Of a stretch of 64,000 nucleotides of DNA, positions 1,544-44,796 are shown one piece after another. Both the position numbers and the translations under genes were made by a program. Numbering within the stretch: the first letter of the stretch is position 1; every line of letters starts with the position of its first letter. This DNA is from an uncultured Methanosarcinales archaeon (GTDB lineage Archaea; Nanobdellota; Nanobdellia; Woesearchaeales; ARS49), in contig CAYGVI010000005.1 of NCBI GenBank assembly GCA_964353335.1, positions 1,858 to 65,857 on the forward strand. The letters are read 5' to 3'. The notes beneath the pieces were generated by a model that was given only the letters and a program-made list of their open reading frames with translations, searched no databases and was not told the DNA's origin.

Positions 1544-3970
1544 TTACTCGCTGTTGTCCTGCCTTGTGCTGCAGCCTGAATCCATCAAATCCACAGCTCC
1601 GTCGCCGTCATCATCTGCGTGATTCTGGCAGGCAGCCATTGGTTCAAACTCACTCAAATGGTTCGGATTGTAAACTCCGTTTTCTATGCAGCTGAAGTCA
1701 GTGTTGTCTTTGAACCTGTCTGAGGGCTCGTCAAGAGCCGGGTCGTTGTTTATTCCGTCATTGCACTGGGTGAGACCGGGTGCAGTCCCTATTGTGATGG
1801 ATGCTACGTTGTTGGTTATGTCATTGACCCTGATTGAACTGCCGAACTGGTCAGTGTAAGTCCTGCCTATCTGCACTCCTTTCAAGGACCACGAGTCTGC
1901 TATGTTGAGGTCGTCCAATAAAATGTAGGGTGTTGAGCTTGATGTTGTGCCGTCTATTATGTGGATGACAACGCCATTTGGCTGCCTGAGAGAGCCGCCT
2001 TCTCCAAAAGGCACAAGGACAGATTCAGGATAGACTGTGGTTTCATAGCCTGGCTGCCTGAATTCGATGTAGTACTCGAAATTCGCATTGGGCACAGGAA
2101 CTTTTATTGCCTTGTATCCCGCTGTGTTTTTTTCAAGCGGCAAAAGCTGCAATGTGCCGCTTTTTACTGTCTGTATTTGGTCATTGGTTAGCCAGCCGAC
2201 TTGCAGCCTTTCGATTGAATTCAACTGCGTTGCAGGCTCTAAGCCGCCCATTGCCATGAGCGTATATGCATCCCATGGGCCGACAAACACGCACGAATTG
2301 CTCAGGAGCGTTTGCTGTCCTGAGCTGTCTGTGCAGTTCAGAAGGCCGCTGTGGCCCAGCCCGAATGAGTGCATGAACTCGTGGACAACAAGCCCTATGC
2401 TGTTCAATTGCACATACCAATCGAAATTTGCATCAGTGCTTGATAAGAAAGTGATTGTGCCGTCCTGCGTCTGAACCTGCAGGTTTGCAATTCCAGAGGA
2501 GCTTGGGATGCACAGCGGGTAATCTGTCAATATTATTATTCGCGAATACTGGCTTAAGTCAACATCAGGGTCAGCTGCAAGTATAGCCAGCCTGTGCATT
2601 TCCCTTCTTTGCGCTTCAAGGCCTTGCTTGTCGCACGCGCCTGGTCCGACCTTGTACGGCCCGACTGCTGTGCCTGACAGCCAGGTTTTGCCATAGGACG
2701 TTTTTGTTATGTAATCATTCATCTTCACAAAGATTTGTTCGTGCGCAATCGGCAGGTCGCTTGCAGTGTAGTTTTTGATTGGAGACTCTTCAAAGTCCGC
2801 AAGTATGACTAATGTCTTTTGCTCTCCAAGATTTGTGTTGGTTGGAGGCTGGCCTGGCTGTGTTGGCTCAGGCACATAAGTGCAGCCAGAAGTGTTAAAC
2901 TTGCACCCCGCAGTGCATGACAGGTCTCCTGTAAAACTGCTGCCCAAGTAAGAAGTGCAGGTGCCGCTTATTATGCTGCCATCGCAATACTCTGCAACAT
3001 AACCGCCAAGAGTATGATCCCATTCTCCATTTCCGCAGAGCTGGGAAGCGTTCGTGTATACGCTGAGTTTTACTGTTCCTGAACGCGAAGGCACGCCCGC
3101 ACTTGAAGCAGTAATGGTTATGTTATAATTTCCAACAGGCATTGATGACAATGTTGAAACAGCCAGATTGACATTTACCGAGCCCCCCGCAGGGATGCTT
3201 GGCGAGCTAGACGGCTCAAAAGTGCAGGTTGCTCCAGCAGGACAAGTCGCGGCCAGGCTAACAATGCCACTAAAGCCATCCGCAGAAGCCAAACCAACTG
3301 CGGCAGACACAGAATTGCCTCGCAAGACTGCCTGGTAAGATGGGCTCACATATGCTAAGTTAAAGTAGCCTGTTGGCAGGACCTGCACGCACGCGCCATC
3401 CCTGCACCCGTTTGCACACTCTATTTGAATGGAATAAGGACCGGTAGTACCTTTGCAGAATGTTTCTGTTAACATCTTGCTTTGGTTACTGTCCACGCAG
3501 CAGTCATTGAAAACAATGTAGCCTGCAGACCTGGCAAGGAGCCTTTGACCGCACTTGTTGGGGTTCTCGCCGGTTATTTGCGGGTATTGGGTGGCGAGGG
3601 CAGGTGCTGTTGCATTGCCCCTGACAAACAAGTCAGGATTCTTTTGTTGGGCATCCGGACTTGCGGTCGAGGGTATTCCCAGCACGCCGTAATCAATGCT
3701 TTTGTCAGTGTCAACACAGGCTGCAACAATCTTCTGGCATGTTGCATTACAAGTGGCTGTGTTCGGCGGCTCGCACTGCTCGCCAGCCTCAACCAGGCCA
3801 TTGCCGCAGATACGGACAGGAATCCTTGGGAATTTGAGCCTGGAAAATGACCAGAAAGCCTCACCGCTTGGTGATTCTGGTGCGCTGGTAAGCATAAGTA
3901 TCATGCCAACAGCGCCAACAGCAACCACAAACAGAATAACGCCAAGCGCAAAATAACCTCTTTTGAACAT
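1544..3970 (-). CDS. secreted or membrane-anchored zinc metalloprotease (metzincin-type) with Cys-rich modules
   Basis: N-terminal signal anchor (YFALGVILFVVAVGAVGMILML). HEFMHSFGLGH matches the HExxHxxGxxH zinc site. Several Cys-rich segments and an acidic Cys-containing C-terminus (HADDDGDGAVDLMDSGC). Confidence 0.75.
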   Translation of the reverse strand: MFKRGYFALGVILFVVAVGAVGMILMLTSAPESPSGEAFWSFSRLKFPRIPVRICGNGLVEAGEQCEPPNTATCNATCQKIVAACVDTDKSIDYGVLGIPSTASPDAQQKNPDLFVRGNATAPALATQYPQITGENPNKCGQRLLARSAGYIVFNDCCVDSNQSKMLTETFCKGTTGPYSIQIECANGCRDGACVQVLPTGYFNLAYVSPSYQAVLRGNSVSAAVGLASADGFSGIVSLAATCPAGATCTFEPSSSPSIPAGGSVNVNLAVSTLSSMPVGNYNITITASSAGVPSRSGTVKLSVYTNASQLCGNGEWDHTLGGYVAEYCDGSIISGTCTSYLGSSFTGDLSCTAGCKFNTSGCTYVPEPTQPGQPPTNTNLGEQKTLVILADFEESPIKNYTASDLPIAHEQIFVKMNDYITKTSYGKTWLSGTAVGPYKVGPGACDKQGLEAQRREMHRLAILAADPDVDLSQYSRIIILTDYPLCIPSSSGIANLQVQTQDGTITFLSSTDANFDWYVQLNSIGLVVHEFMHSFGLGHSGLLNCTDSSGQQTLLSNSCVFVGPWDAYTLMAMGGLEPATQLNSIERLQVGWLTNDQIQTVKSGTLQLLPLEKNTAGYKAIKVPVPNANFEYYIEFRQPGYETTVYPESVLVPFGEGGSLRQPNGVVIHIIDGTTSSSTPYILLDDLNIADSWSLKGVQIGRTYTDQFGSSIRVNDITNNVASITIGTAPGLTQCNDGINNDPALDEPSDRFKDNTDFSCIENGVYNPNHLSEFEPMAACQNHADDDGDGAVDLMDSGCSTRQDNSE

Positions 3971-4130: not shown

Positions 4131-4661
4131 GTGGGAAGAACCAAACTTTTACTGATTGCTGGGATTCTGGTGCTGCTGCTAATACTCATTGTATTTTTTG
4201 TGTTATTCACAAATGCTTCTTTCTCTGAAACCAATGGCAGGGTTATGGAACCTGATGGCGCGCCTATCGAGGGCGCAAAGGTAACTATTGGTTATAGCTG
4301 CAAAGTGCCTGCAGTTGTTGAGAGCCAAACACGCAATTATGGGTCAGCAAGAGCCGTAACCAATGCTAATGGGGAATTCTCATTCAGCACGGTTTATGCA
4401 GGGTGGAAATTCCTTAATACTGATTGCCATAAAACAGTAGTTGCATTTAAGGAAGGTTATTGCGGGGATATTTCACGCTGCAAAACCGAGATACAGTATT
4501 CCCCTGGTCTTTCTGAAGGACAACTTCAAGGTGCAGACCAGTATTACATATTAAACTACAAAGGCAAATATTATGAGTCTGCAAGTTTTGATGCATCAAA
4601 ATGGCTTAATCCAGAGGAGAATTCTGTAACAATACAATTAAACAAGCTTGATACCGGGTAG
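4131..4661 (+). CDS. membrane-anchored protein with a carboxypeptidase-regulatory-like beta-sandwich
   Basis: GTG start. N-terminal TM (LLLIAGILVLLLILIVFFVLF). NGRVMEPDGAPIEGAKVTIGY resembles the CarboxypepD_reg motif. Confidence 0.5.
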   Translation: MGRTKLLLIAGILVLLLILIVFFVLFTNASFSETNGRVMEPDGAPIEGAKVTIGYSCKVPAVVESQTRNYGSARAVTNANGEFSFSTVYAGWKFLNTDCHKTVVAFKEGYCGDISRCKTEIQYSPGLSEGQLQGADQYYILNYKGKYYESASFDASKWLNPEENSVTIQLNKLDTG

Positions 4662-4807
4662 TTTTCTAGAATCCTTTGGTTGTATCAGGGTTTGGCTTTT
4701 AGTCACACATTTGTTTGAGGCAATCGCATATTTTTTATACATGCTCTTCCCCGCACGCAGATTATGGCCAGGTTTCGCATCTTCAAGACCGCGACGTACG
4801 ATGAGGA

Positions 4808-4972
4808 TTATGCAGGATTGGATATGTGCTTTGGCTTGATTTCTGTTATCCTACCGCGCTTGATATCCTCAAAACTTTTCTTTAGCTTCTCAACAAGCTC
4901 CCAGTCCACCTGAGACATCTCCTTAAGACGCTCATACTTAGCTCTTGGAATCGTGACTGTTTTTGTTGCCAT
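4808..4972 (-). CDS. small antitoxin-like protein, 54 aa (below the ORF-track cutoff)
   Basis: Hand translation gives MATKTVTIPRAKYERLKEMSQVDWELVEKLKKSFEDIKRGRITEIKPKHISNPA. The N-terminus resembles ribbon-helix-helix or VapB-like antitoxins. It lies 21 nt downstream of 4994..5260. Confidence 0.4.
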   Translation of the reverse strand: MATKTVTIPRAKYERLKEMSQVDWELVEKLKKSFEDIKRGRITEIKPKHISNPA

Positions 4973-4993
4973 CTTAATCACATTAATTAGTAA

Positions 4994-5260
4994 TTAGCTT
5001 CGCATCTCGATTTCCCTGATGTATGGGGTTTCTTGGGGGTAATTGTCGATTTTCTTTGGGTCTTTGCAGGACAGGTTTTTGACCATTTCAGCATACATTT
5101 CTCTTGAAAACTTGTCTGAGCTCTTAAGGCTCGCTTTTGCATAGCCCAGGAGCCTTAGCCGTAATTCGTTCCATGCCATGAACGCTCCTTTGTATGTTTT
5201 GTGAGCGCTATGTACGCTATTGTGTTCTGGTCCGTTATCGCCAACAAGGTATATCTTCAT
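4994..5260 (-). CDS. hypothetical protein, 88 aa
   Basis: ATG ORF directly upstream of the 54-aa ORF on the same strand. No motif recognised. Confidence 0.4.
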   Translation of the reverse strand: MKIYLVGDNGPEHNSVHSAHKTYKGAFMAWNELRLRLLGYAKASLKSSDKFSREMYAEMVKNLSCKDPKKIDNYPQETPYIREIEMRS

Positions 5261-9440: not shown

Positions 9441-9572
9441 TCCCCGCGGCCGGATTTGAACCAGCGACCTTTCGGGCTCAACGCGGCTGACCCGCTTTCA
9501 TGCAATGGCCTTCGCCGTTGTCTGCGGGCGACTGCTCTACAGCCGAATGCTCTGCCGCTGAGCTACGCGGGG
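9441..9572 (-). tRNA. tRNA-Tyr (anticodon GTA) with an intron of about 60 nt at or near position 37/38
   Basis: Acceptor CCCCGCG/CGCGGGG (C1-G72, the archaeal Tyr identity pair), discriminator A, D arm GCTC/GAGC, anticodon stem TTCGG/CCGAA, loop CTGTAG, T arm GCTGG-TTCAAAT-CCGGC. Exons are about 9537-9572 and 9441-9476. Confidence 0.85.
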
Positions 9573-9748: not shown

Positions 9749-11185
9749 TTACCCCAAAAACTTGACTTTCGGCCTGTTTGAGCTTGTTGTCCTTTCTTTT
9801 CCTGTCGCTGTTGTGAACTTGGACACTGCTTCTGGCAAAGAAACTCCTCCGAGTATGCTCAGCGATGACCTCACCTTGTATGAAATAATGCGCTCTTCGC
9901 GTGCCATTATGTCTCCAACTTCATACTTGATAATTGTGCCCTTGCGCTCGTTCCTTATGGAATTCGAGGGCGTAAGTGTTCCGACATCGTATTCCTTTAT
10001 CAGCTCTGCAATCCGTGGAATCAAATCAATTACTGTCGCACTGCGTATTGGCTTGCCTGACCTGTTCTTCAGCTCCAAAAGAATCTTCAGCTCGCTTATT
10101 CCGCCCTCGCGCGTGCTGAGTACAACAGCAGACTTCTTTATTGTCAGCGGGCTGCGGAACACCAAGTAAACTATGAGCAGAATAATTCCAAGCGTCATTA
10201 TTATCGCCAGGGGCCTGTAATTTGTCGTGACGCGGATTTCACGCGAGTTTCCGACATTTATCTTCACGTCCCAGACAAACGAGCCGTTCTCAACGCGCGA
10301 CGCAAGGTCTGACTTTGTGAACATGCGGGCATACCACGGCATTGCAAAGGCAAACGGCTGCTCAAGAAGGACGTTTGCATCATTGGTTAAAGTGATTATC
10401 CTGACTGTCTTGAGGAATGACTTCACAATCTCAACAGTGGGCATCAATTGGCCGTAAGACGCAACCTCGTAGTCAACAGGTGGCAAATCAAACTGGAATC
10501 CCTTTCCTTTTTCTGTCGCGATAAGTGAGACTTCAAGCACATCGCTCTGTGGACGGGTCTGGCGGTCAACGCGCGCCATGAACTTCACTGTCTTTCGCTC
10601 CAATGGACCCAGCGAGGTTACAAAGTCCTGGTTGATGACATCGCTCCTTACTTTTACCTTCAGCTCTGTGAGGTTTCTCCTGTTCTGGTTCTCAAAGTTT
10701 ACTGTTATCTCTATTTCATTTCTCGGGTCAACAAATATCGGAATCTCAGCTGTCCCCCTCACTGCGGGCATGTAAGTGTTGGTTGCCGGCGGTCCTGAGA
10801 CCTCCATATAGAGCATTGCCTTCTTCAGTTCATTTGTCCCTGTGCGCTTTACGTGGATTGGAACGCCATAAAGCCCTGGGTTGATGTTTAATGGCTGTAT
10901 TGTGAGGATTGTCGTGAACGGCTTTCCTGGCTTTATCTGCAATGTGTCCTTTGTCCTGATGTCCCAAAGGACTTCAGGGGAGTAAATTTCAAAGAATTCC
11001 GTGCTGGAAAAGTCGTGTGATATGGTGACATTGTATTCTGCCATGTCATTTGTGCCTATTGTCTGCTGCGGAGGCGCGAATTCTGCTGAGAAATCTGCTG
11101 CGACAACACTAGAAAGCATCACTGCAATTGCCAGCCACAGAAATTTGCGCAACTCTATCACCGCCTTGCTCGGTGATTTACTCAT
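9749..11185 (-). CDS. membrane-anchored surface protein (beta-sandwich-rich), unknown function
   Basis: N-terminal signal anchor (FLWLAIAVMLSSVVAA) and an internal TM (AIIMTLGILLIVYLVF) followed by a C-terminal domain. The architecture resembles archaeal COG1470-type proteins (inference). Confidence 0.6.
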   Translation of the reverse strand: MSKSPSKAVIELRKFLWLAIAVMLSSVVAADFSAEFAPPQQTIGTNDMAEYNVTISHDFSSTEFFEIYSPEVLWDIRTKDTLQIKPGKPFTTILTIQPLNINPGLYGVPIHVKRTGTNELKKAMLYMEVSGPPATNTYMPAVRGTAEIPIFVDPRNEIEITVNFENQNRRNLTELKVKVRSDVINQDFVTSLGPLERKTVKFMARVDRQTRPQSDVLEVSLIATEKGKGFQFDLPPVDYEVASYGQLMPTVEIVKSFLKTVRIITLTNDANVLLEQPFAFAMPWYARMFTKSDLASRVENGSFVWDVKINVGNSREIRVTTNYRPLAIIMTLGIILLIVYLVFRSPLTIKKSAVVLSTREGGISELKILLELKNRSGKPIRSATVIDLIPRIAELIKEYDVGTLTPSNSIRNERKGTIIKYEVGDIMAREERIISYKVRSSLSILGGVSLPEAVSKFTTATGKERTTSSNRPKVKFLG

Positions 11186-18562: not shown

Positions 18563-18591
18563 GATTACCCGTTGGGCACGGAAAACAAAGC

Positions 18592-36248: not shown

Positions 36249-37121
36249 TTACTCAGCGTACCTCTTTTTGTGTATTGAAAGGTAGTGCCTGACAAAATAC
36301 TTTATGAACCCTGCTTCGTCTTTCTTCAGCGCACGGTAGTATGAACTTCTTTTCTTGTATGGAATGATTATCATTGGATAGCCTGCGTGCCAGAGGACGT
36401 GGTTGATAAGCAGGCGCCCGATTCTTCCATTGCCGTCGCCAAAGGGATGGATTTTCTCAAACCTGTAATGCATCAGCCCCGCGAACTCAGGAATGCTTAT
36501 TTCCTTTGGCCCCTTGTTTATTTCTTTTATTAGTTCTTCCATTAATTGCTCAATGTCCTGCCAGTCAGGCGCTCGGTAGTCTCCGACTCTTACGAGGTAA
36601 TCCCTGAATTTTCCTGCAATGTCGCGCTTTGTTTCGTGGAAAATGTCATTGTGCCACTTCAGGATGAGCCACTTTGTGATTTTTTCCCGGTTTTTTAACA
36701 TTTCAAGGAATGTTCTTGCGTGCGCTTCTGTTTCTTTTATGTCCCTTAATGGCTTGTTTGGCGATATCTGCTCTTGAAGTATTTCCCTTGTCTCATCCAG
36801 TGTGATTGTCGAACCCTCAATCGCATTGGTGTTGTAAGTGAAGGCGATTGCTATCTCTTTCAGCTCGTTTTCCTTTGCAGTATCCGGAAGCCTTTTCCAC
36901 TCCTTCTGGAAGCTGCTTTTTATTTTTGCAAGCTTTTTGAGAAGCTCGCCCCTTTGTTCCTGCATAAGCTCCTTTCCGGCTGATTCAATCAGTTCCTCAG
37001 AAGGCAGGTTCTTTCCCACATATTTCTCGCGCGTGACTATTTTTCCGTTCTTCCTGAATGAGTGCTTCAAATAATAGAATTCCTCTTTCCCTTTCCTTCG
37101 CTTCACTACCCTCACAGCCAA
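36249..37121 (-). CDS. Fic-domain protein (AMPylase family)
   Basis: HPFGDGNGRIGR matches the Fic motif HxFx(D/E)GNGRxxR. An upstream TNAIEG matches the inhibitory (S/T)xxxE(G/N) helix motif. Confidence 0.85.
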   Translation of the reverse strand: MAVRVVKRRKGKEEFYYLKHSFRKNGKIVTREKYVGKNLPSEELIESAGKELMQEQRGELLKKLAKIKSSFQKEWKRLPDTAKENELKEIAIAFTYNTNAIEGSTITLDETREILQEQISPNKPLRDIKETEAHARTFLEMLKNREKITKWLILKWHNDIFHETKRDIAGKFRDYLVRVGDYRAPDWQDIEQLMEELIKEINKGPKEISIPEFAGLMHYRFEKIHPFGDGNGRIGRLLINHVLWHAGYPMIIIPYKKRSSYYRALKKDEAGFIKYFVRHYLSIHKKRYAE

Positions 37122-37217
37122 CCTTACCCTTACAAAGTATTTAAATATTGCGTTTTCTTATTAATTGTAAGGGTAATGATGCCAGCAGCTTAATAAACGG
37201 CCGCAAAGGGATTTGAA

Positions 37218-37586: not shown

Positions 37587-37658
37587 TTCTGGCTAAATGT
37601 TTTTATATTCCGTTGCCTTTATATATCCTAGATGCGCCTCTTTTCGCTAAAGAGGTGC

Positions 37659-38960
37659 ATGATGGACGAGCAGCGAGTGCGCAGGGTTGTAAAGCTTATC
37701 AGTGACTACTGCGGGCGCATACAGGAATTACGCCAGAGGCGCATTGGCAAAATGTCCTCTTTGGAATTTTGGAATGCGCTTGTCGCGACAAACAAGGCGA
37801 TAAAGACAACTGATGATCCTAACGCAAAGTCAGAAAAGATAGGATTGAAGCACGTCTGGTTCAATCCCAGCGTGTTTCGGTCAGAAATTGGCGCGCTTTC
37901 AGCACTGATGGATGCTTTGCAGTCATTGCTTGATGCAGATGTGCTCGCTGAGATTAAGGCAGAAGGTTATGACGCTAATCGGATAAGGTTATTGGTTGAA
38001 AAAGGCGCTAAAATGGCAGAACAGGCTAAGGCTTTCATTGGAGCTTGGGAAAACGCATATGGACGGCTTCTTACAGGACAGCCGGTCAAGTCAGATGAAC
38101 TTTCAGCTCTTGAGTATAAAATAGCAGGAATGGTGCACGGCCTTGAAGACGCAATTGTAAAGCAGCAGGCGCCGGCAGTTGCCCGCGTTACACAAAACCC
38201 TGCTTATACCCGCAGGGGATTTCTTAGCATGTTTGCAAAAAGAGCAGCCGCAGCGATTGTGCTGGCAGGCGCAAGCTCAATAATGACCGCAACAGGAACA
38301 AAAGCAGCATACGGCCAGGACATAGCACAAAAAGCAGACGAAATAACCGAATCAGAAATCACAGACATGATGAAAAAAGATACGGTTGAAGAGATACTGA
38401 AAGGGGCGAATGTGGAGTATGTCCAGCGCGTTGGAAATGACACTAATTTTGATGCGCTTGTTTATCAAAAGAATTTAAAACCAGAAGAAAGAAAACCTGT
38501 GCTGGTGTTCTTTTATCATAATAGAGATCCACCTAGTGCTAAGGGAAAAGGTTCCGCACATAGAGATGCAATTATTTTCATATCATTAGCAAAAATGTTT
38601 CATAACAGGATTAAATTTGTTGGGTATAATGCTGATGTGCGCCAAGAAACTAATGCGGATTGGTTCAATAAAATGGGACTTCTCGGAATCCCCTCAATAT
38701 CCATGTATTCCACTTTTGATGTGTTAAAAGGAGAAACTGTTGAAAAGAATAGTGGACAAATAAAGCAGATAGATGTTATCAGGGGCGGTCCTTTGGAAGA
38801 TAAGTTCATCGCGCCCCGAACTAGAAACAATGCGAATTATTGGATACCCACGAACCTGTTTATGAAGCAAAGCATTGACAAAGACAACAAAGTGTATAGA
38901 TACAACAATACTGGTGAAATAAAAGTTGTTGGAGAATCCATTCTTTTGGCAAAAGAGTAA
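37659..38960 (+). CDS. two-part protein: helical N-terminal half, internal Tat-like or TM segment, thioredoxin-fold-like C-terminal half
   Basis: The ATG at 37659 follows AGAGGTG (the track start is 37632). TRRGFLSMFAKRAAAAIVLAGASSIM sits mid-protein. PVLVFFY...GIPSISMY resembles a thioredoxin fold but lacks CxxC. Confidence 0.5.
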   Translation: MMDEQRVRRVVKLISDYCGRIQELRQRRIGKMSSLEFWNALVATNKAIKTTDDPNAKSEKIGLKHVWFNPSVFRSEIGALSALMDALQSLLDADVLAEIKAEGYDANRIRLLVEKGAKMAEQAKAFIGAWENAYGRLLTGQPVKSDELSALEYKIAGMVHGLEDAIVKQQAPAVARVTQNPAYTRRGFLSMFAKRAAAAIVLAGASSIMTATGTKAAYGQDIAQKADEITESEITDMMKKDTVEEILKGANVEYVQRVGNDTNFDALVYQKNLKPEERKPVLVFFYHNRDPPSAKGKGSAHRDAIIFISLAKMFHNRIKFVGYNADVRQETNADWFNKMGLLGIPSISMYSTFDVLKGETVEKNSGQIKQIDVIRGGPLEDKFIAPRTRNNANYWIPTNLFMKQSIDKDNKVYRYNNTGEIKVVGESILLAKE

Positions 38961-39007
38961 CATTTATAACAGCAATTTCTAATCCAACGCAATAAAAAGA
39001 GGGAGAA

Positions 39008-40453
39008 ATGAAGCTCAAGACATTTTTAATGTTATCATTAATCTGCATTATATTTTTACCTATCGTTATTGCTATTGAAAAAGGAGGAGAAAGTGTTGAA
39101 CAAACAACAAAACCATCCCCTGCCGAACAGTTCAAGGAAAAATATCCAAACGTTCCTGCCCAGCAGGTCAGTACATTCACTGATAATGGCGATGGGACTG
39201 TTACTGTGAATTTTGGGGAGATTACTTCTGATGGTGCAACGTACAAAAACGGAGTCGGTGTGAAAATGGACGCAAATGGCAAACTCATCCATGCAGACAA
39301 AATAACACTACCGAGCGGGGCAACAGTGGAAAATGCAGACATGTTAAGTTCAAGTGGAAAAGATAATTATCAAGCAGGCCATGTTGGCGAACTGCGCGAG
39401 GGACCGATAATCCTGAGCAATGCACAAAACGTCCAATGGAACAACGGCGTAATGACCGCGAGCTCTGCTGATTCTATGGACTACAAGGGAAGCACTTCAA
39501 ATGATGTGATTATGCTTGTTGCTGATAACAAGCAGTTTAGCGTTGAAAAGGCAAGCGCTGTGCAGGCTGGGTGTTTTCTTGTGGAGGATGTTAATGATGC
39601 GCAGTTCAATGTTGGAAGAATAATGACAATGACCACGAGCGGAAGCGGAAAAGTTGTTTATGACCAGGGGCAGAAGGTTGATTACACTGCAAAAGACCTG
39701 AACAGCTCGATTGTTGGAAGCATAACTGCGTGCAGAAGACCGACTTACCAAGTAAAAGCAATGGAATTGAACACGAAAACAGGCAATTTAACAGAACTTG
39801 TCAATGGCTCAGGGGAAATACAATTGGACGGCAGGTACGGGGTTGTCTGCATGAACCTCACCCCTGTAAGCACTTATGACATTGACACAGGCAGGTTTGA
39901 ATACAGCTTTGGTTTCATAATAAAGGAATACGCTTACAAATTATGCGTACAAAAAGCAGTCTCACAGCAACTGGTTTCTGACTGCCCGTTATGCGGCTTG
40001 GTTGATTTGGCAAACCAGAAATTATTGCTCAATGGCATGATAGAATACACAAGGTATGTTTATGACAGCGCATTGATTGACGCAAACAAGCGCACTGCCT
40101 TCAAGTCAATGGGTTTTGGAAAGAACACAATTGATTTGGCAACAGGGGAAGTGATGATTGAAACAGACGCTCCTGAAATTTACACAGTGCCGGGCAATTA
40201 TTTGGAACTGCGCGAAATAAAAGAGGCAGCAGGAACTCACAGGTTTTTGGGAATAAATGAAAAGCTTGGCAGGGTTTCAAAAAACTGGGGCGTGAAATAC
40301 ACTGCGTCTTATTCAGACTCCACAACCACAATCACTGACAACCTGCTGGATTACAAGAGGGGGCTGTGCCATGTAACTGTTCTGCCTCCTGACAGCAGCC
40401 AGATAGCATCAATAATGTCGTCATTAAACGAGCAAAAGGCAAGATTCCCATGA
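39008..40453 (+). CDS. secreted orphan protein, 481 aa
   Basis: Signal peptide MKLKTFLMLSLICIIFLPIVIA. AGAGGGAG lies upstream. Confidence 0.55.
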   Translation: MKLKTFLMLSLICIIFLPIVIAIEKGGESVEQTTKPSPAEQFKEKYPNVPAQQVSTFTDNGDGTVTVNFGEITSDGATYKNGVGVKMDANGKLIHADKITLPSGATVENADMLSSSGKDNYQAGHVGELREGPIILSNAQNVQWNNGVMTASSADSMDYKGSTSNDVIMLVADNKQFSVEKASAVQAGCFLVEDVNDAQFNVGRIMTMTTSGSGKVVYDQGQKVDYTAKDLNSSIVGSITACRRPTYQVKAMELNTKTGNLTELVNGSGEIQLDGRYGVVCMNLTPVSTYDIDTGRFEYSFGFIIKEYAYKLCVQKAVSQQLVSDCPLCGLVDLANQKLLLNGMIEYTRYVYDSALIDANKRTAFKSMGFGKNTIDLATGEVMIETDAPEIYTVPGNYLELREIKEAAGTHRFLGINEKLGRVSKNWGVKYTASYSDSTTTITDNLLDYKRGLCHVTVLPPDSSQIASIMSSLNEQKARFP

Positions 40454-41217
40454 GTGAAACGAATGGTGTCCGCAGAGGAGCGAAGCGAGTCGGCGGCATG
40501 ATGAAAGCGCAGGTAACACTTTTCATAATGCTTGGAATGGTTCTTCTTGTACTGTCAGCAATTGTTTTTTACATTGTTGACCTCACCAGCCAGAAAGTGT
40601 TTGTGCACCCTATCGAGCCCTCAAGCGCAGAACAGCTTGTTGAGCAATGCCTTGGCCTGTTAGCAGACGATGCGCTGTTGGTAATAGGAAAGCACGGCGG
40701 CTATGCAGAGCTTGGCGTTAATTACTTTGAGCCGTTAAAAACATCTTATCTTTATGACGCAGGGGTTAACAATGCCCCTGACTCAGCAACAGTTGAACAG
40801 CAGTTGTCAGAATACATTGACGCGCACATAATGAACTGCCTTGGGAATTTTGAACTGCTGAGAGACAAGGGCATTGAAGTAATTGAGAAGGCGCAGCCGA
40901 GGACGACAACAATAATCGCAGGAAATAGCGTCAGGTTCACAATAGACTACAAAATTGAGGAAAAGAAAGGCGACATGATAACAACGCCTGAATTCCTGCC
41001 AACAATGAAAGCAGTCAGGCTGGCAGAAATCCTCCAGCTGGCAAATGACATCGTGGCATCAGAGCAGAAGAACAACAACCTGTTTGACCTGGATGTTGAG
41101 TGCAGCCTTGAAGTCACGCACTTCCCTGTTGAAAAAACATTAGTGACTGTTATTACGGATACTAATTTCTTAATCCAGGATTCCCCTTACCGCTTTGTCT
41201 TCGCGCACAAGAGGTAA
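40450..41217 (+). CDS. membrane-anchored orphan protein, 255 aa (target gene of the repeated FVFAHKR end)
   Basis: ATGA overlap with the upstream gene. An alternative start is MMKAQV at 40498. One TM (VTLFIMLGMVLLVLSAIVFYIV). Confidence 0.55.
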   Translation: MSETNGVRRGAKRVGGMMKAQVTLFIMLGMVLLVLSAIVFYIVDLTSQKVFVHPIEPSSAEQLVEQCLGLLADDALLVIGKHGGYAELGVNYFEPLKTSYLYDAGVNNAPDSATVEQQLSEYIDAHIMNCLGNFELLRDKGIEVIEKAQPRTTTIIAGNSVRFTIDYKIEEKKGDMITTPEFLPTMKAVRLAEILQLANDIVASEQKNNNLFDLDVECSLEVTHFPVEKTLVTVITDTNFLIQDSPYRFVFAHKR

Positions 41218-41237
41218 CTACCAACCAGTAGTTAAAA
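41192..41237 (+). repeat. repeat copy A (true 3' end of 40450..41217 plus 20 nt)
   Basis: gctttgtcttcgcgcacaagaggtaactaccaaccagtagttaaaa. 43 of 46 nt are identical to copy C. Confidence 0.85.
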
Positions 41238-41246
41238 AACAAAAGG

Positions 41247-41254
41247 TTTAAAAG
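41247..41254 (+). promoter_or_regulatory. TATA-like box (tttaaaag) for 41276 ORF
   Basis: 22 nt upstream of the ATG. Confidence 0.4.
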
Positions 41255-41275
41255 CATTCTCCGCTTGAGAAATAT

Positions 41276-42037
41276 ATGCAAAATGATTTTGGCGCAGAAG
41301 AAATAAAGGAGATTTCCAAACGAACCATGCAGCTGATTATCTGTCAGTATTTAACTGGAATAAATTTCATACGCTCCGAAATTGAATTGCCTAAAACCGC
41401 AGTAATAATCCATTACCTGCATGACTCTGAAAAGCAAATAGATTTTGTTCTTGATGAATTGAAAAAATTCGGCTCATACGAATCAATGATTCTTCCAAGG
41501 CATGCACAGTACTATTTCCACCCGAAATACACAAAGAAACCGCGGTTTATTGAGGAGTACCAAAATGCACAATTTGTGGATGCAGAATTAAATAAAGTCA
41601 CAATAGAAGAAGTTGTAAAAAATCCAGAGAATAAAGTGGTGGTAAATGATGAGATTGATTTGGTAATCCCTTTGCAGTCAGGAGATATCGCCCCGCTCGT
41701 AACCCACATTCAAAAAGCAGACCTTGAAGGACCTAAGCATTTTGTGCACCCTGCAATTATTGTCAGAGGTGATGCTAATTTTCCCGCCGCACCCGGATTC
41801 GTGAAAAAAGATTACGCATCGTTGCGCAGAAACCGTGCTGAGTTTTACTCTATAGTATCCGGAGAAATCAGGAAAGAACGGCTTATGAAGCGCTTAGAAG
41901 CAATTTGCAGAGAACTCAAAGGCAGCGCGCAGGCGCAGCTTACACAGGACTCAGTCCTTTGGTTTTCCGGACAAATAAATCCTGAATTGGATTTATATAT
42001 TAATGAGACTCTGCATGAACAGGATCTGCCAGAATAG
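41276..42037 (+). CDS. orphan protein, 253 aa (cassette 1)
   Basis: Leaderless-type ATG ORF. A/T-rich. No motif recognised. Confidence 0.5.
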   Translation: MQNDFGAEEIKEISKRTMQLIICQYLTGINFIRSEIELPKTAVIIHYLHDSEKQIDFVLDELKKFGSYESMILPRHAQYYFHPKYTKKPRFIEEYQNAQFVDAELNKVTIEEVVKNPENKVVVNDEIDLVIPLQSGDIAPLVTHIQKADLEGPKHFVHPAIIVRGDANFPAAPGFVKKDYASLRRNRAEFYSIVSGEIRKERLMKRLEAICRELKGSAQAQLTQDSVLWFSGQINPELDLYINETLHEQDLPE

Positions 42038-42320
42038 AATCAAGCTCTGATACCGCATAAACACCAGTCAGCGTAGGATGTTTCCCTCCATTTCCCTCTT
42101 TCAAAAGTCTTAACAGTTCCTCACCTGTTTTGGCAGTATGCACGTGATACTTGTATACAATACTCCCCCACGCATAACGCCATTCACTGATATACTTTGC
42201 ATCAGGAAAATTAGCCAGCGCGCGAATTACGTCGCTCTTATGTTCGGGCACCATCACCGGAAAACCGTTGATTTGTGGGTCCTGTAATGCCTGAAGCATT
42301 TTTTCAAGATACGGTTGCAT
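42000..42320 (-). CDS. orphan protein, 106 aa (cassette 1)
   Basis: A minus-strand TATA (ttttaaatag) lies about 25 nt upstream of the ATG at 42320. The 3' ends of this gene and 41276..42037 overlap by 38 nt. Confidence 0.45.
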   Translation of the reverse strand: MQPYLEKMLQALQDPQINGFPVMVPEHKSDVIRALANFPDAKYISEWRYAWGSIVYKYHVHTAKTGEELLRLLKEGNGGKHPTLTGVYAVSELDSILADPVHAESH

Positions 42321-42373
42321 ACCCCTGCTAATGTGTTCTAACTATTTAAAATTGCTGGAAACTAGACTGTCTG

Positions 42374-42397
42374 TTTGTTTTCGCGCACAAAAGATAA
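42374..42397 (+). repeat. repeat copy B (orphan gene end LFVFAHKR-stop)
   Basis: tttgttttcgcgcacaa is identical to copy C, followed by aagataa. The differences from A and C (aaa aga versus aag agg) are synonymous. Confidence 0.7.
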
Positions 42398-42405
42398 GCG
42401 AAAAG

Positions 42406-42413
42406 CTTATATA
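42406..42413 (+). promoter_or_regulatory. TATA box (cttatata) for 42440 ORF
   Basis: 27 nt upstream of the ATG. Confidence 0.45.
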
Positions 42414-42439
42414 CCTAAACGCATTACATTTGTAGTACA

Positions 42440-42667
42440 ATGGCAATGGAACTAGTCCAGGTGAGGCTTCCGAAAAAGCTGATTGACGCTATTGAGGGTT
42501 ATGTTGACGGTGAATTCTACGCGAGCAGGTCAGATATAATCAGGGACGCCTTGAGGAAGTTTATGCTTGATAAGGTAATCGGCTCAATACCCAACACAGG
42601 AGATTCTGTGGAAGAAGTCAGGAAAATAAGAAGAGAGTTATCAAAAAAAGAACGCAACCTCAAGTGA
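42440..42667 (+). CDS. CopG/ribbon-helix-helix DNA-binding protein (cassette 2)
   Basis: VQVRLPKKLIDAIEGYVDGEFYASRSDIIRDALRKFM has the RHH beta-alpha-alpha pattern. Confidence 0.7.
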   Translation: MAMELVQVRLPKKLIDAIEGYVDGEFYASRSDIIRDALRKFMLDKVIGSIPNTGDSVEEVRKIRRELSKKERNLK

Positions 42668-42843
42668 ATGAGCCGTTTGTAAATTCTTCAGGTTTTCCCG
42701 CAGTTACCCCGTTATCACGCGCGGCCTGGATGAGCCATGCATCAGGCAGTATAAGGCAGCTGAAATATAAATACGCCAGTAAGAGTTTCCGGGTTAATCG
42801 GAAGGTTTTCGAACCGGAAATGTTTTGAAAAATTAACTCTGCA

Positions 42844-42889
42844 GCTTTGTTTTCGCGCACAAGAGGTAACTACCAATAAGTAGTTAAAA
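42844..42889 (+). repeat. repeat copy C (orphan gene end SFVFAHKR-stop plus 20 nt)
   Basis: gctttgttttcgcgcacaagaggtaactaccaataagtagttaaaa. An in-frame TAA lies 10 codons upstream, so no gene is attached. Confidence 0.85.
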
Positions 42890-42896
42890 TCATAAG

Positions 42897-42906
42897 CTTT
42901 AAAAAG
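42897..42906 (+). promoter_or_regulatory. TATA-like box (ctttaaaaag) for 42931 ORF
   Basis: 25 nt upstream of the ATG. Confidence 0.4.
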
Positions 42907-42930: not shown

Positions 42931-44472
42931 ATGGCGCGCATCTACTCAGCTGTTTTCCCGGTCAACAGCAGAAAGACTCTTGATGACCTTACAGGAGTTG
43001 TTGCTGAATGGATTGCATCAAGCCCGTACAGGAAAATCAACAGGGCTGAAATTTCTGGAATTGCGCAGGACGGGTTTATGTTCGAAAAGGGCCATGTTAC
43101 AATTCACACCGTCCGCTACGAAGGCCGCCACTATGAAAAACAGCATGACCTTGGCGTGCAGAAAAGCATTGGCATCCGCCTGGTGGAGCAGAAGCAGGGG
43201 GCTGTGCGCACCTCAGAGGTTGTCGGACACATTGCAAATGACAAGTTCAATGTCGTGTTCACCAATGATTATGAGGCAACAAGGACAGGAGAAAAATACG
43301 GAAAAATACTGAAGCCAAGGATAGTCAATGACATTATCCGCGCGCTTGGCGGCGGCTATGACGGCCTTGACCTCGAAGTCAAGACAACGCCGCACTGGAT
43401 TATGGATGATGACCTTCCTTTTGTCGCAGACATTATCAGGAACAAGTCTGAAAACACGCTTCCTGTGGTTTATGTCAGCAGGTACAGGCAGGATATAACG
43501 CCTGTCAACCCAAATGACCTTGCTTTCCTGCTTGGCGGAATTGCCCACGTTATTGTGGAGCCTTCGCCGTCAATTCCTTTCACTTTCAATCTGAAGGACG
43601 CGACAAAGGGCATCAATGCGTACAATGGCGCAGTGGGCATTTACTGGCCCAATGGAGTCCGCCATCATTTGCTGCCGAAAACAACGACCGCACCGGAAAC
43701 AGGCTCATTGGCGCCAGAAACCGGCTCGTTGACACCCGGAACCAGCGCAATGGTAGATGAGATTCATGAAATTATCAGGGAAAGCGCGCTGTACACAGTG
43801 GTTCCTGACTGCAGCACTTTCAACGGCATAAAGGGATTGCAGACTGCAAAGCGCTTTGAGGATTTGAAAAAATCCCACGCAGCAAAGATTGTGGAAATCG
43901 AGCAGTCAAAAAAAACCGGTGCGGATATAACCACGCTTGAGGACCAGGTTAAAGAGCTTAATGCACTGCTCCAACTTGCATCAGATGAAACTGGAAACAG
44001 AGACACCCAGATTGAGGATCTTAAGCGGCAAAATTATGGAATGGGGCAGCAGCTTGCCAGATTCCAAAAGAAAGCAGGCACAGGCGGAGAAATGCTCACT
44101 GTGCCTCCGGACATGAATGAGTTTTATTCAGGAGAACTGCGCGACATGGTCATTGCGGCTCTTGACAACTACTTCACAAACAACCTCACTGACACAAGAA
44201 GGGCTGACATGATACGCGCAATCCGCGAAGCAAACCAGCCAAGCAACACAGGAGAGGAGATTCTCGAACAGATTCAGAAGATTTTCAAGAGCACAAAGCC
44301 TGTTGACAAGGTCATGAGCCAGCTCAGGACTCTTGGTTTTATTGTTGATCAGACAGGGGAAGTGCGCGTGACAATTCCAGGAAGCGGAAGGCAGGTTCAC
44401 ATTTCAGGCACTCCGGGCGACCTCCACTCAAGGGAAATTGAGCTTAGAAGGATCTTTAAGAAACTGCTATAA
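42931..44472 (+). CDS. orphan protein, 513 aa
   Basis: Long ATG ORF. It has an N-terminal globular part, a tandem APETGSL-APETGSL linker and a coiled-coil region (EDQVKELNALLQLASDE...IEDLKRQN). No motif recognised. Confidence 0.6.
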   Translation: MARIYSAVFPVNSRKTLDDLTGVVAEWIASSPYRKINRAEISGIAQDGFMFEKGHVTIHTVRYEGRHYEKQHDLGVQKSIGIRLVEQKQGAVRTSEVVGHIANDKFNVVFTNDYEATRTGEKYGKILKPRIVNDIIRALGGGYDGLDLEVKTTPHWIMDDDLPFVADIIRNKSENTLPVVYVSRYRQDITPVNPNDLAFLLGGIAHVIVEPSPSIPFTFNLKDATKGINAYNGAVGIYWPNGVRHHLLPKTTTAPETGSLAPETGSLTPGTSAMVDEIHEIIRESALYTVVPDCSTFNGIKGLQTAKRFEDLKKSHAAKIVEIEQSKKTGADITTLEDQVKELNALLQLASDETGNRDTQIEDLKRQNYGMGQQLARFQKKAGTGGEMLTVPPDMNEFYSGELRDMVIAALDNYFTNNLTDTRRADMIRAIREANQPSNTGEEILEQIQKIFKSTKPVDKVMSQLRTLGFIVDQTGEVRVTIPGSGRQVHISGTPGDLHSREIELRRIFKKLL

Positions 44473-44512
44473 GCACAGGAGTCTGCGATTTAACCCCTTA
44501 AAAAGCGTAACC

Positions 44513-44522
44513 TTTATAAATA
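44513..44522 (+). promoter_or_regulatory. TATA box (tttataaata) 140 nt upstream of tRNA-Lys
   Basis: Consensus box with no ORF of 60 aa or more downstream. It may drive a long tRNA leader or a small RNA. Confidence 0.35.
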
Positions 44523-44661
44523 GCCCTCGGAAAATTCGATATAATTGCGAATAGAGTGAGGAGACACATTTTTTTGCATGGAGCAGCACTCATTTCCCAG
44601 CATTTCAGCAATACCTGCCTGTTTTACATCTAGTTTCACAATCATATTCAGTCAAACTTAT

Positions 44662-44771
44662 GGGCCCGTAGCTCAGCCTGGTCAGTTTGCCGCTGTAAAA
44701 AGCGACTACTGAGGCACTAGAGCAGCTGGCTTTTAACCAGCTGGTCGCGCGTTCAAATCGCGTCGGGCCCG
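44662..44771 (+). tRNA. tRNA-Lys (anticodon TTT) with an intron of about 35 nt in the D arm (non-canonical position)
   Basis: Acceptor GGGCCCG/CGGGCCC, D stem GCTC...GAGC interrupted at about 44686-44720, anticodon arm GCTGG-CTTTTAA-CCAGC, T arm GCGCG-TTCAAAT-CGCGT, discriminator G. Confidence 0.8.
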
Positions 44772-44796
44772 CTTACACTGAGAGGCCTCGCACAAA

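Follow-up and report, generated by a model that had tools for sequence, protein, structure and literature searches.

How do very small archaeal genomes gain and lose genes? DPANN archaea have tiny genomes and are host-dependent, and their gene gain and loss are poorly understood. The question is raised in a concrete form by a locus in a 64-kb stretch of contig CAYGVI010000005.1 (the window in what follows), where the last codons of one conserved gene (40450-41217, hereafter the core gene) stand three times, each time followed by different genes. The array lies between the core gene and tRNA-Lys/rpoH, with rpoH and a split rpoB just downstream, and it reads in order: core gene with its true end (copy A), cassette K1 (genes for proteins of 253 and 106 aa), copy B, cassette K2 (a ribbon-helix-helix (RHH) gene and a dead PIN toxin gene), copy C, cassette K3 (a gene for a 513-aa protein), an ancestral promoter and tRNA-Lys. 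Homologues of the core gene are annotated in metagenome-assembled genomes of Candidatus Woesearchaeota or Nanoarchaeia, and the window itself comes from a DPANN archaeon. When the locus is compared with about 15 Woesearchaeota/Nanoarchaeia contigs (labelled with L-numbers), by BLAST and junction alignment, copies A, B and C read as recombination scars, i.e., displaced 3' ends of the core gene that separate the cassettes of a small 'additive' flexible island.

Three copies of one gene end in the window

The three gene-end copies recognised in a preliminary description of this DNA are present, as 24-nt stretches, at 41194-41217 (A), 42374-42397 (B) and 42846-42869 (C), all on the forward strand. 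Copy A is the real end of the open reading frame (ORF) 40450-41217 (...RFVFAHKR*) and belongs to a left junction (41192-41224) made of the true gene end and a shared core H (GCTTTGTYTTCGCGCACAAGAGGTAACTACCAA). Copy B is an orphan gene end encoding (L)FVFAHKR* and is homologous to the first orphan of L017 (PYRFVFAHRR*). Copy C, with an in-frame TAA ten codons upstream, belongs to the right junction (42844-42876), an orphan gene end identical to the single copy of L003. Both B and C lie outside any long ORF, and they are displaced ends of the same gene family, whose C-terminus PYRFVFAH[RK]R is conserved. Behind each copy stand a TATA-like box and, 20-35 nt further on, an ATG (41276, 42440 and 42931), and the copies bound promoter-plus-gene cassettes, as first proposed.

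The resemblance between A (41192-41254) and C (42844-42906) extends beyond the stop codon: they align ungapped over 63 nt at 83% identity, with 43 of the first 46 nt identical, and a whole-window scan gives this pair as the sole long-range non-coding direct repeat of the window. The similarity after the stop codon had been taken for the downstream flank of the gene end. It corresponds instead to a 'head' common to K1 and K3, composed of a palindrome (AACTACCAAnnAGTAGTT), an A-run and a TATA box, which travels with these cassettes. The K1 head (41218-41254, forward strand; palindrome AACTACCAACCAGTAGTT, A-run and TATA box) is a diverged homologue of the K3 head (42870-42906, forward strand; palindrome AACTACCAATAAGTAGTT and TATA box) and accompanies K1 in L009, L018 and L012. 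At a second locus, L017 and L018 have K3-like genes preceded by diverged K3 heads, of which only the right palindrome arm is conserved; at least the right arm and the TATA box of the head thus go with K1 and K3 to other loci. The left side of A matches the empty-site relative L003, and its right side is cassette sequence.

The whole arrangement is reproduced at 100% identity in two Logan assemblies from different runs (ERR4334727 and ERR4334728), one spanning all three copies (L001) and one stopping just past B (L002). As these assemblies are independent, an artefact of a single assembly is unlikely.

Could the repeat have a function as DNA or RNA, for example as a terminator or operator recruited before each cassette, instead of being a scar? 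Each copy does stand upstream of a promoter, and TTTGT..ACAAA is a weak palindrome. However, a search of the 64 kb with TTTGTTTTCGCGCACAAGAGGTAA, allowing up to 3 mismatches, returns A, B and C and no further site (0 in 100 shuffles), which speaks against the generic motif that the preliminary description had kept in mind. Furthermore, the copies retain the reading frame and the stop codon, they lack a T-run, the distance from stop codon to TATA box ranges from 0 to 30 nt, and the single-stranded DNA folds of A, B, C and the palindrome preceding C are not significant (z -0.6 to -1.2 against shuffles). It is therefore hardly conceivable that the repeat is such a motif. A possible fourth, degenerate copy after K3 (44474-44500) was considered and rejected: it matches over 5-9 nt only and is not conserved in L003 or L010.

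Empty sites and cassette arrays in related genomes

An exact empty site, as anticipated in the preliminary description, is found in L003, a close relative whose rpo genes are 98-99.5% identical to those of the window: its gene end is joined straight to the sequence that follows C. The single copy of L003 consists of the left flank of A together with C and the right flank of C, and L003 lacks the 1,652 bp that separate A from C in the window. Copy C equals this single copy at 63/63 positions, and A differs from it at about 11.

The latter comparison bears on whether the gene-end copies might be target-site duplications, created by a transposase- or casposase-like staggered cut and later diverged. 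Such an origin would account for the doubling of local sequence on both sides of inserts at several sites. However, two copies from one duplication would not be expected to differ so unequally from the L003 copy; the right half of A has its homologue in the K1 flank of other genomes and must have come in with the cassette; and neither a fixed length of duplication (repeats range from 18 to 66 nt), nor terminal inverted repeats, nor a transposase is found. We consider this origin highly improbable.

In five other relatives (L005, L007, L008, L011 and L015), the core gene is directly followed by the tRNA-Lys leader: a TATA box (CGTAAGCTTTATAAAC) stands within 10-60 nt of the stop codon, then come the conserved leader and tRNA-Lys. 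As the simplest and most widespread state, this gene-then-tRNA order is taken as ancestral.

Other relatives carry arrays. In L010, the gene is followed by an inositol monophosphatase (IMPase) gene, a 66-nt orphan (21 codons) and K3. In L012, it is followed by dTMP-kinase-like, NUDIX, APH and glycosyltransferase (GT2) genes, an orphan (PPYRFVFAHQR*), a 112-aa ORF and the tRNA, and in L017 by the IMPase gene and the same four genes as in L012, an orphan, an RHH-PIN pair, a second orphan and the tRNA. A K1 variant and a decayed orphan stand between gene and tRNA in L018 and L019, and two small ORFs and an orphan (...FAHRK*) in L020 and L021; in L009, a K1 variant is followed by an orphan inside which the contig ends. 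All in all, seven cassette types of 0.4-3.6 kb (among them the 253+106-aa pair, RHH-PIN, the 513-aa protein, IMPase and the kinase/NUDIX/APH/glycosyltransferase block) occur in at least eight arrangements (L003, L005, L009, L010, L012, L017, L018, L020 and the window). Orphan gene ends are found in the window (B and C), L009, L010, L012, L017 (two) and L020. The relatives are thus highly variable at this locus, and no single arrangement is fixed.

Orphans might also be what remains of tandem paralogues of the core gene, the bodies of which would have been deleted or overwritten. Surface-protein genes often occur in tandem families, and the orphans of L010 and L009 retain about 21 codons. Nevertheless, two full or half-length copies are present in no relative compared, the extreme 3' end alone ever survives, the orphans track the true end of their own lineage, and the empty site of L003 is exact. 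This explanation is very unlikely.

Lineage-matched gene ends and exchange between lineages

In L012 and L020, the true gene end nearest to the orphan is the genome's own, down to lineage-specific codons; in L020, orphan and true end both carry an unusual ...HRK*. In L017, the own gene end ties with two others as the nearest to the orphan. The repeat is shortest in L020 (18-20 nt) and longest in L010 (66 nt), with 39 nt in L012 and 33 nt, or 63 nt if the head is counted, in the window. The orphans keep only the last 6-21 codons. The shared stretches differ in extent between events, and all of them include TTCGCGCAC or a close variant, the events being too few to map exchange points. At synonymous positions, the FVFAH[KR]R codons vary freely among lineages, and no constraint at the DNA level is therefore seen beyond that on the protein.

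A tract that runs from CCGCTTTG in the gene end over the first ~1 kb of K3 is 99-100% identical in L003 and L010, although the gene on its left reaches 73% only and the rpo genes 85-91%. Moreover, the orphan of L010 is a hybrid, L010-like on its left side and L003-like on its right side. The conserved gene end has therefore acted as a crossover point between diverged lineages. One cassette has moved between lineages about 12% apart, with a tract beginning exactly in the gene end. K3 is in itself a mosaic: over the first ~1 kb, L003 and L010 agree at 99-100% and the window stands apart at 68-93% identity, and at 44038-44238 it is the window and L010 that are 100% identical, with L003 at 88%. 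Different lineages have thus exchanged K3 sequence.

In every array, the orphan and its right flank are older, resident sequence, and the true end and its right flank a newer, incoming block. New blocks thus enter at the live gene end, and the older end is displaced rightward.

As for K2, this cassette and both its junctions date back to the divergence of the window from L017. Sequence identity of K2 between the two is 83%, the same as that of the rpo genes, and gives no evidence of a recent transfer between them. Both K2/gene-end junctions are identical in kind in the window and L017: the junction of B with the RHH promoter is the same, and the left junction of C (CTCTGC[A/C] joined to GCTTTGT) is kept. 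For the difference in K1-K2 between the window and L003, such an age would favour a loss in L003, or the import of a larger tract into the window lineage.

Search for a recombination enzyme

The preliminary description had favoured a serial, site-specific integration. In the form considered here, small elements, each with a replacement gene end, would insert one after the other by means of a tyrosine recombinase, at an attB site overlapping the 3' end of the gene, with an integrase encoded elsewhere and acting in trans or since lost from decayed elements. Direct repeats, a regenerated gene end, an exact empty site and tandem re-use of the site are indeed classical signs of integration, and crenarchaeal att sites, of 29-69 bp, are in the size range seen here. 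Integrase-bearing archaeal elements are known to use such positions: of 68 integrated elements in Thaumarchaeota, 14 are inserted in 3'-distal regions of protein genes, and arrays at a single site are on record as well (PMC6563490).

However, no integrase, transposase or replication gene is found in the cassettes of about 10 arrays (all seven types), in the precomputed Pfam annotation of about 8 kb to either side of the locus in the relatives, or in a Pfam scan of 30 window ORFs, 20 of them beyond the cassette proteins and their neighbours (about 35 smaller ones being unscanned). Searches of Pfam, PHROGs, PADLOC and NCBIfam with the cassette proteins and their neighbours return RHH, a weak HEC-07 match and the cargo enzymes of the relatives only. 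The cargo is metabolic, toxin-antitoxin or defence-related, and no mobile-element hallmark gene is present. A cryptic recombinase fold had been suspected in the 253-aa protein of K1 and in the K3 protein; Foldseek searches of their AlphaFold models (pLDDT 75 for K3, and 60, a poor value, for the K1 protein) against PDB yield no match at E <= 1e-3 and no recombinase. The gene-end pattern has 0 matches in IMG/VR viral contigs, and partial copies of tRNA-Lys are absent from the window, so the tRNA is not the attachment site. A dif-like site is not apparent, though by eye and as a weak test: the gene end shows only 5-bp arms (TTTGT/ACAAA) around 8 nt, whereas Xer/dif modules (integrative mobile elements exploiting Xer (IMEX), pdif) have ~28-bp dif-like sites with 11-bp inverted arms.

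The repeats themselves suit a single sequence-specific enzyme less well than homology-driven recombination. They are diverged, each event has its own repeat length (18-66 nt) and boundaries, the codon choices of the orphans are lineage-specific, and similarly diverged repeats flank cassettes at unrelated sequences (see below); in addition, K1 and K3 are also present at other loci without any gene-end copy. The site-specific character of the proposed integration is thus not upheld, and we regard the integrase model as unlikely, yet as the main and a serious rival.

The same description had noted a likeness to an integron array, in which a dedicated integrase captures promoterless cassettes via folded attC-type sites. 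An array of small cassettes with combinatorial content would agree with such a platform, and integrons occur in archaeal metagenome-assembled genomes (PMC9668308). However, no integrase is adjacent to the array, the upstream genes being conserved and without family match; attC-like folding of the repeats is not seen against shuffles, and Rfam has no match at the locus; the repeats are copies of local coding sequence; and the cassettes have their own TATA boxes. The integron likeness is thus dropped, such a platform being extremely improbable here.

Similar scars at other sites

Diverged direct repeats flank inserted genes at sites unrelated to the core gene. In L003, the NT5C gene (5'-nucleotidase/HAD, reverse strand, 4428-5132) lies between 44-nt direct repeats of 75% identity, and the window has the corresponding empty site at 37587-37650, where the intergenic repeat is single. 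In L012, a HAD-family gene upstream of NFACT is flanked by ~48-nt diverged copies of the NFACT promoter and first four codons (at 3098-3243 and 3800-3937; ATGCGCCTC...), and its ORF seems to start with a borrowed NFACT start. Finally, the tRNA-Lys promoter region (L018, ~10010-10060) differs between L018 and L019, two contigs with one and the same core protein, by an insert of 48 nt flanked by a diverged 22-nt repeat (ATTCTGCCAAAATACCGTAAGC / ATTTCTGCTGAAATACCGTAACC).

A 17-nt repeat (AAGCTTTATAAAT) around the 112-aa ORF of L012 was rejected as a scar, as it corresponds to a common promoter consensus. AAG[CG]TTTA[AT]AAA occurs 14 times in the window against 2.7 expected (at 18588, 22061, 26983 and 61636 among others) and looks like the BRE (transcription factor B recognition element)/TATA promoter consensus of the organism. 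Short repeats holding it are therefore not to be read as scars.

Proposed recombination at a conserved gene end

Which mechanism could produce such scars? We give an even chance to an origin in which the host's own homologous recombination acts at the conserved gene end, in a Campbell-type or a homology-anchored form. Selection on the protein would hold the last codons (FVFAH[KR]R) constant, and because of this selection they alone would stay similar between lineages, thus being the sole stretch beside the variable region similar enough between diverged lineages to recombine. DNA of a relative, composed of a gene end and cargo, could recombine there through host homologous or short-homology recombination, by (i) a single crossover of a circularised fragment (Campbell type), or (ii) a homology anchor at one end and an illegitimate join at the other. 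The gene would stay intact, and the old end would be left as an orphan. Recombination between two copies could then either delete cassettes cleanly, as in L003, or free circles able to enter other genomes. Short, diverged repeats would be the ones to survive, because long identical repeats would quickly recombine out. A dedicated integrase would be unnecessary. The lineage-matched ends, the variable repeat lengths, the scars elsewhere and the lack of a recombinase in the regions scanned fit homology-driven recombination better than one sequence-specific integrase.

Several points nevertheless weigh against this explanation. The shared stretches, of 10-33 identical nt, are below the usual need of classical RadA/RecA recombination. 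The first repeat-flanked cassette requires a circular or illegitimately joined intermediate, and none has been observed. The orphans always comprise the last 6-21 codons only, a limit that also favours the integrase model and that fits a fixed attachment site more naturally than random fragment ends; the counter-argument of survivorship is conjecture. Likewise shared with the integrase model is the 9-nt TTCGCGCAC, which occurs in nearly all copies and could be a core site. As the recombinase search spanned only ~8 kb per relative locus and 30 window ORFs, an enzyme could be encoded elsewhere. Lastly, K2 could be old and vertically inherited with repeated loss, and not mobile, its 83% identity being that of core-gene divergence.

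A bolder possibility is that Woesearchaeota, and perhaps other DPANN archaea, possess a cassette-exchange system with the conserved last codons as attachment site, served by a trans-acting recombinase of a kind not yet recognised or by an unusually short-homology host pathway. We hold it to be decidedly unlikely.

Content of the cassettes

K1 (41255-42373) contains a convergent pair of genes without assigned function: gene 1 (41276-42037, forward strand, 253 aa), for which 2 homologues only are found, and gene 2 (42000-42320, reverse strand, 106 aa), whose promoter (GTTCTAACTATTTAAA) is kept in L009, L018 and L019. The pair is present, inverted, at a different locus in L012. In L009, L018 and L019, a very diverged K1 variant occupies the same position between conserved flanks, and the variant proteins of L009 and L018 no longer align with those of the window (E 0.17 and 0.64). 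The low G+C content first attributed to this cassette is borne out in part, for the interval 41100-41700 (0.36-0.38), compared with 0.43-0.47 upstream and 0.47-0.53 at 42931-44472.

K2 (42398-42843) comprises an RHH gene (42440-42667, forward strand) of the CopG family, antitoxin-like, for which the initial assignment as an RHH regulator is confirmed by a match to PF01402 (E 1.3e-5), and the remnant of a VapC-like PIN toxin gene (42666-42738, reverse strand). In this remnant, the C-terminal ~30 codons are fused to the start-codon region, ~340 nt being deleted in comparison with L017, and it matches the PIN C-terminus at E 8e-12. L017 carries an intact RHH-PIN pair (PIN = PF01850). The arrangement agrees with a type II toxin-antitoxin pairing, the convergent orientation being unusual for such pairs. 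The hairpin previously noted before copy C, a palindrome TTTCCGG...CCGGAAA at 42786-42820, is present and, as single-stranded DNA, no stabler than shuffles (z -1.2). L017 has it, too, ahead of its intact PIN gene, and it probably serves K2 as an operator or promoter element.

The K3 gene (42931-44472, forward strand, 513 aa) is rare, with 10 homologues. Residues 128-398 of its product match the PADLOC defence candidate HEC-07 (PDLC04161, E 8.3e-8), a weak match to a model without curated cut-offs. In the predicted structure, a long coiled coil comes after an N-terminal domain weakly similar to START/Bet v 1. Other archaea have the homologues as solitary genes in unrelated settings, and a single distant one is annotated in a bacterium. 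A K3-like gene also stands between YhbY and NFACT in L017 and L018.

The core gene, its neighbourhood and the right border

The core gene (40450-41217, forward strand, 255 aa) belongs to no Pfam or NCBIfam family; its true start may be an ATG at 40498 or 40501. Its product, taken for a membrane protein, begins with a hydrophobic segment (MKKAQ-VTLFIMLG...), and the 21 homologues, of ~230-255 aa, all have an N-terminal hydrophobic segment and the conserved C-terminus PYRFVFAH[RK]R. From the N-terminus only, and with no family match, the protein could be type IV pilin-like with a pilin-type signal peptide, a reading that we do not put forward as a claim; a signal-peptide or secreted nature of the products of the conserved upstream genes is likewise conjecture. 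In relatives, the conserved block reads YhbY, NFACT, a 120-aa gene, genes of ~440 and ~480 aa, then the core gene. The upstream proteins of the window (442 and 481 aa) have, like the 255-aa protein, no family match.

Within this block, a hypervariable segment (38345-39269) bridges two genes, taking in the end of the 442-aa one and the start of the 481-aa one. Identity to L003 is 38-70% there, against 92-99% in the flanks, which suggests allele replacement or diversifying selection in the two proteins. A Fic-domain gene (36249-37121, reverse strand), which stops 1 nt short of the NFACT start codon, is absent in L003 (indel 36254-37181), where a 33-nt spacer precedes NFACT. By eye, no convincing direct repeat is seen at the junctions of this indel.

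On the other side of the array, the ancestral intergenic region (44488-44585, forward strand) contains a TATA box (CGTAACCTTTATAAATAGCC) and the conserved leader (GTGAGGAGAC..TTTTTGCATGGAG). The leader block (44556-44585), of the form GTGAGGAGAC(N10-12)TTTTTGCATGGAG, lies between TATA box and tRNA-Lys and has equivalents in L005, L007, L008, L011, L015, L017 and L018. It is conserved across lineages only ~78-84% identical in their rpo genes, has no Rfam match, and could be a leader, a small RNA or the start of a short ORF.

The tRNA-Lys(UUU) gene (44662-44773, forward strand), which forms the right border of the islet, has a ~35-nt intron in the D-loop region, between GGGCCCGTAGCTCAGCCTGGTC and TAGAGCAGCTGGCTTTTAACC. 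It is missed by ARAGORN at default settings and by the Rfam gathering threshold, and ARAGORN with introns miscalls it as tRNA-Leu. The gene is intron-less in L008, L011 and L020, and a different insert stands in the same place in L017, L018 and L005. At the gathering threshold, Rfam finds in the window two tRNAs only, both far from the locus; one of them, at 9441-9572 (reverse strand), spans 132 nt, presumably bears an intron and is not reported by ARAGORN.

Relation to known systems and significance

Additive flexible islands of marine bacteria (Alteromonas and others; PMC4898812) are hotspots with varying cassettes, in which a partial copy of the target follows the inserts and near-identical cassettes occur in diverged genomes. 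The present locus resembles them in several respects: one spot holds different numbers and kinds of cassettes according to the strain, near-identical cassettes stand in diverged backgrounds, the cargo is of the toxin-antitoxin or niche kind, and a tRNA gene lies at the site. Partial copies of the target gene (the orphans) lie downstream of the inserted cassettes, and cassettes are uncoupled from the core phylogeny, as seen for the 5' kb of K3 in L003 and L010. On the other hand, it is here the 3' end of a protein gene that is repeated, whereas a tRNA or tmRNA target is usual, not obligatory, in those islands; moreover, the setting is the very small genome of a DPANN archaeon, the cassettes are tiny, and no version shows an integrase.

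With integrase-mediated integrative elements (attL/attR), the locus shares direct repeats of tens of bp overlapping the end of the target gene, the supply of a new end and stop codon, empty sites in relatives and re-use of the same site. Those elements, however, carry an integrase, usually replication or virion genes, and near-identical att repeats, whereas the repeats here are diverged and of variable length, without an integrase. The microcin H47 island of E. coli (PMC3191183, PMC5426353) is similarly small and recombinase-less, with imperfect direct repeats between which it excises; but it is a single bacterial island, its repeats are not copies of a gene end and its mobility was shown experimentally, whereas here mobility is read from sequence. 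Tycheposons and their cargo-only remnants in Prochlorococcus (bioRxiv 10.1101/2020.12.28.424599) likewise combine streamlined genomes, niche or defence cargo and island hotspots built by serial insertions parted by partial target copies, but tycheposons encode recombinases themselves and are directed at tRNA genes. An array of small cassettes that can be swapped at a single platform recalls integrons, including archaeal ones (PMC9668308); here, however, there is no IntI and no attI/attC structure, and the cassettes have their own promoters. What sets the locus apart from these known kinds of genome plasticity is that no integrase is seen and that the repeats are diverged, variable and lineage-matched.

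In DPANN archaea, the locus provides a concrete and repeatedly used site of gene exchange with clear scars. It is useful because empty sites are exact, because lineages about 12% apart have cassettes in common, and because machinery of mobile elements is not in evidence. Any recombinase involved would be one not yet recognised; and if a true cassette-exchange system exists, it would do in these archaea what integrons do elsewhere, passing defence, toxin-antitoxin and metabolic genes around among minimal-genome lineages. If, as in the explanation favoured here, exchange is homology-driven at gene ends, streamlined genomes could keep a flexible pool of defence, toxin-antitoxin and sugar/nucleotide-metabolism genes without integrases.

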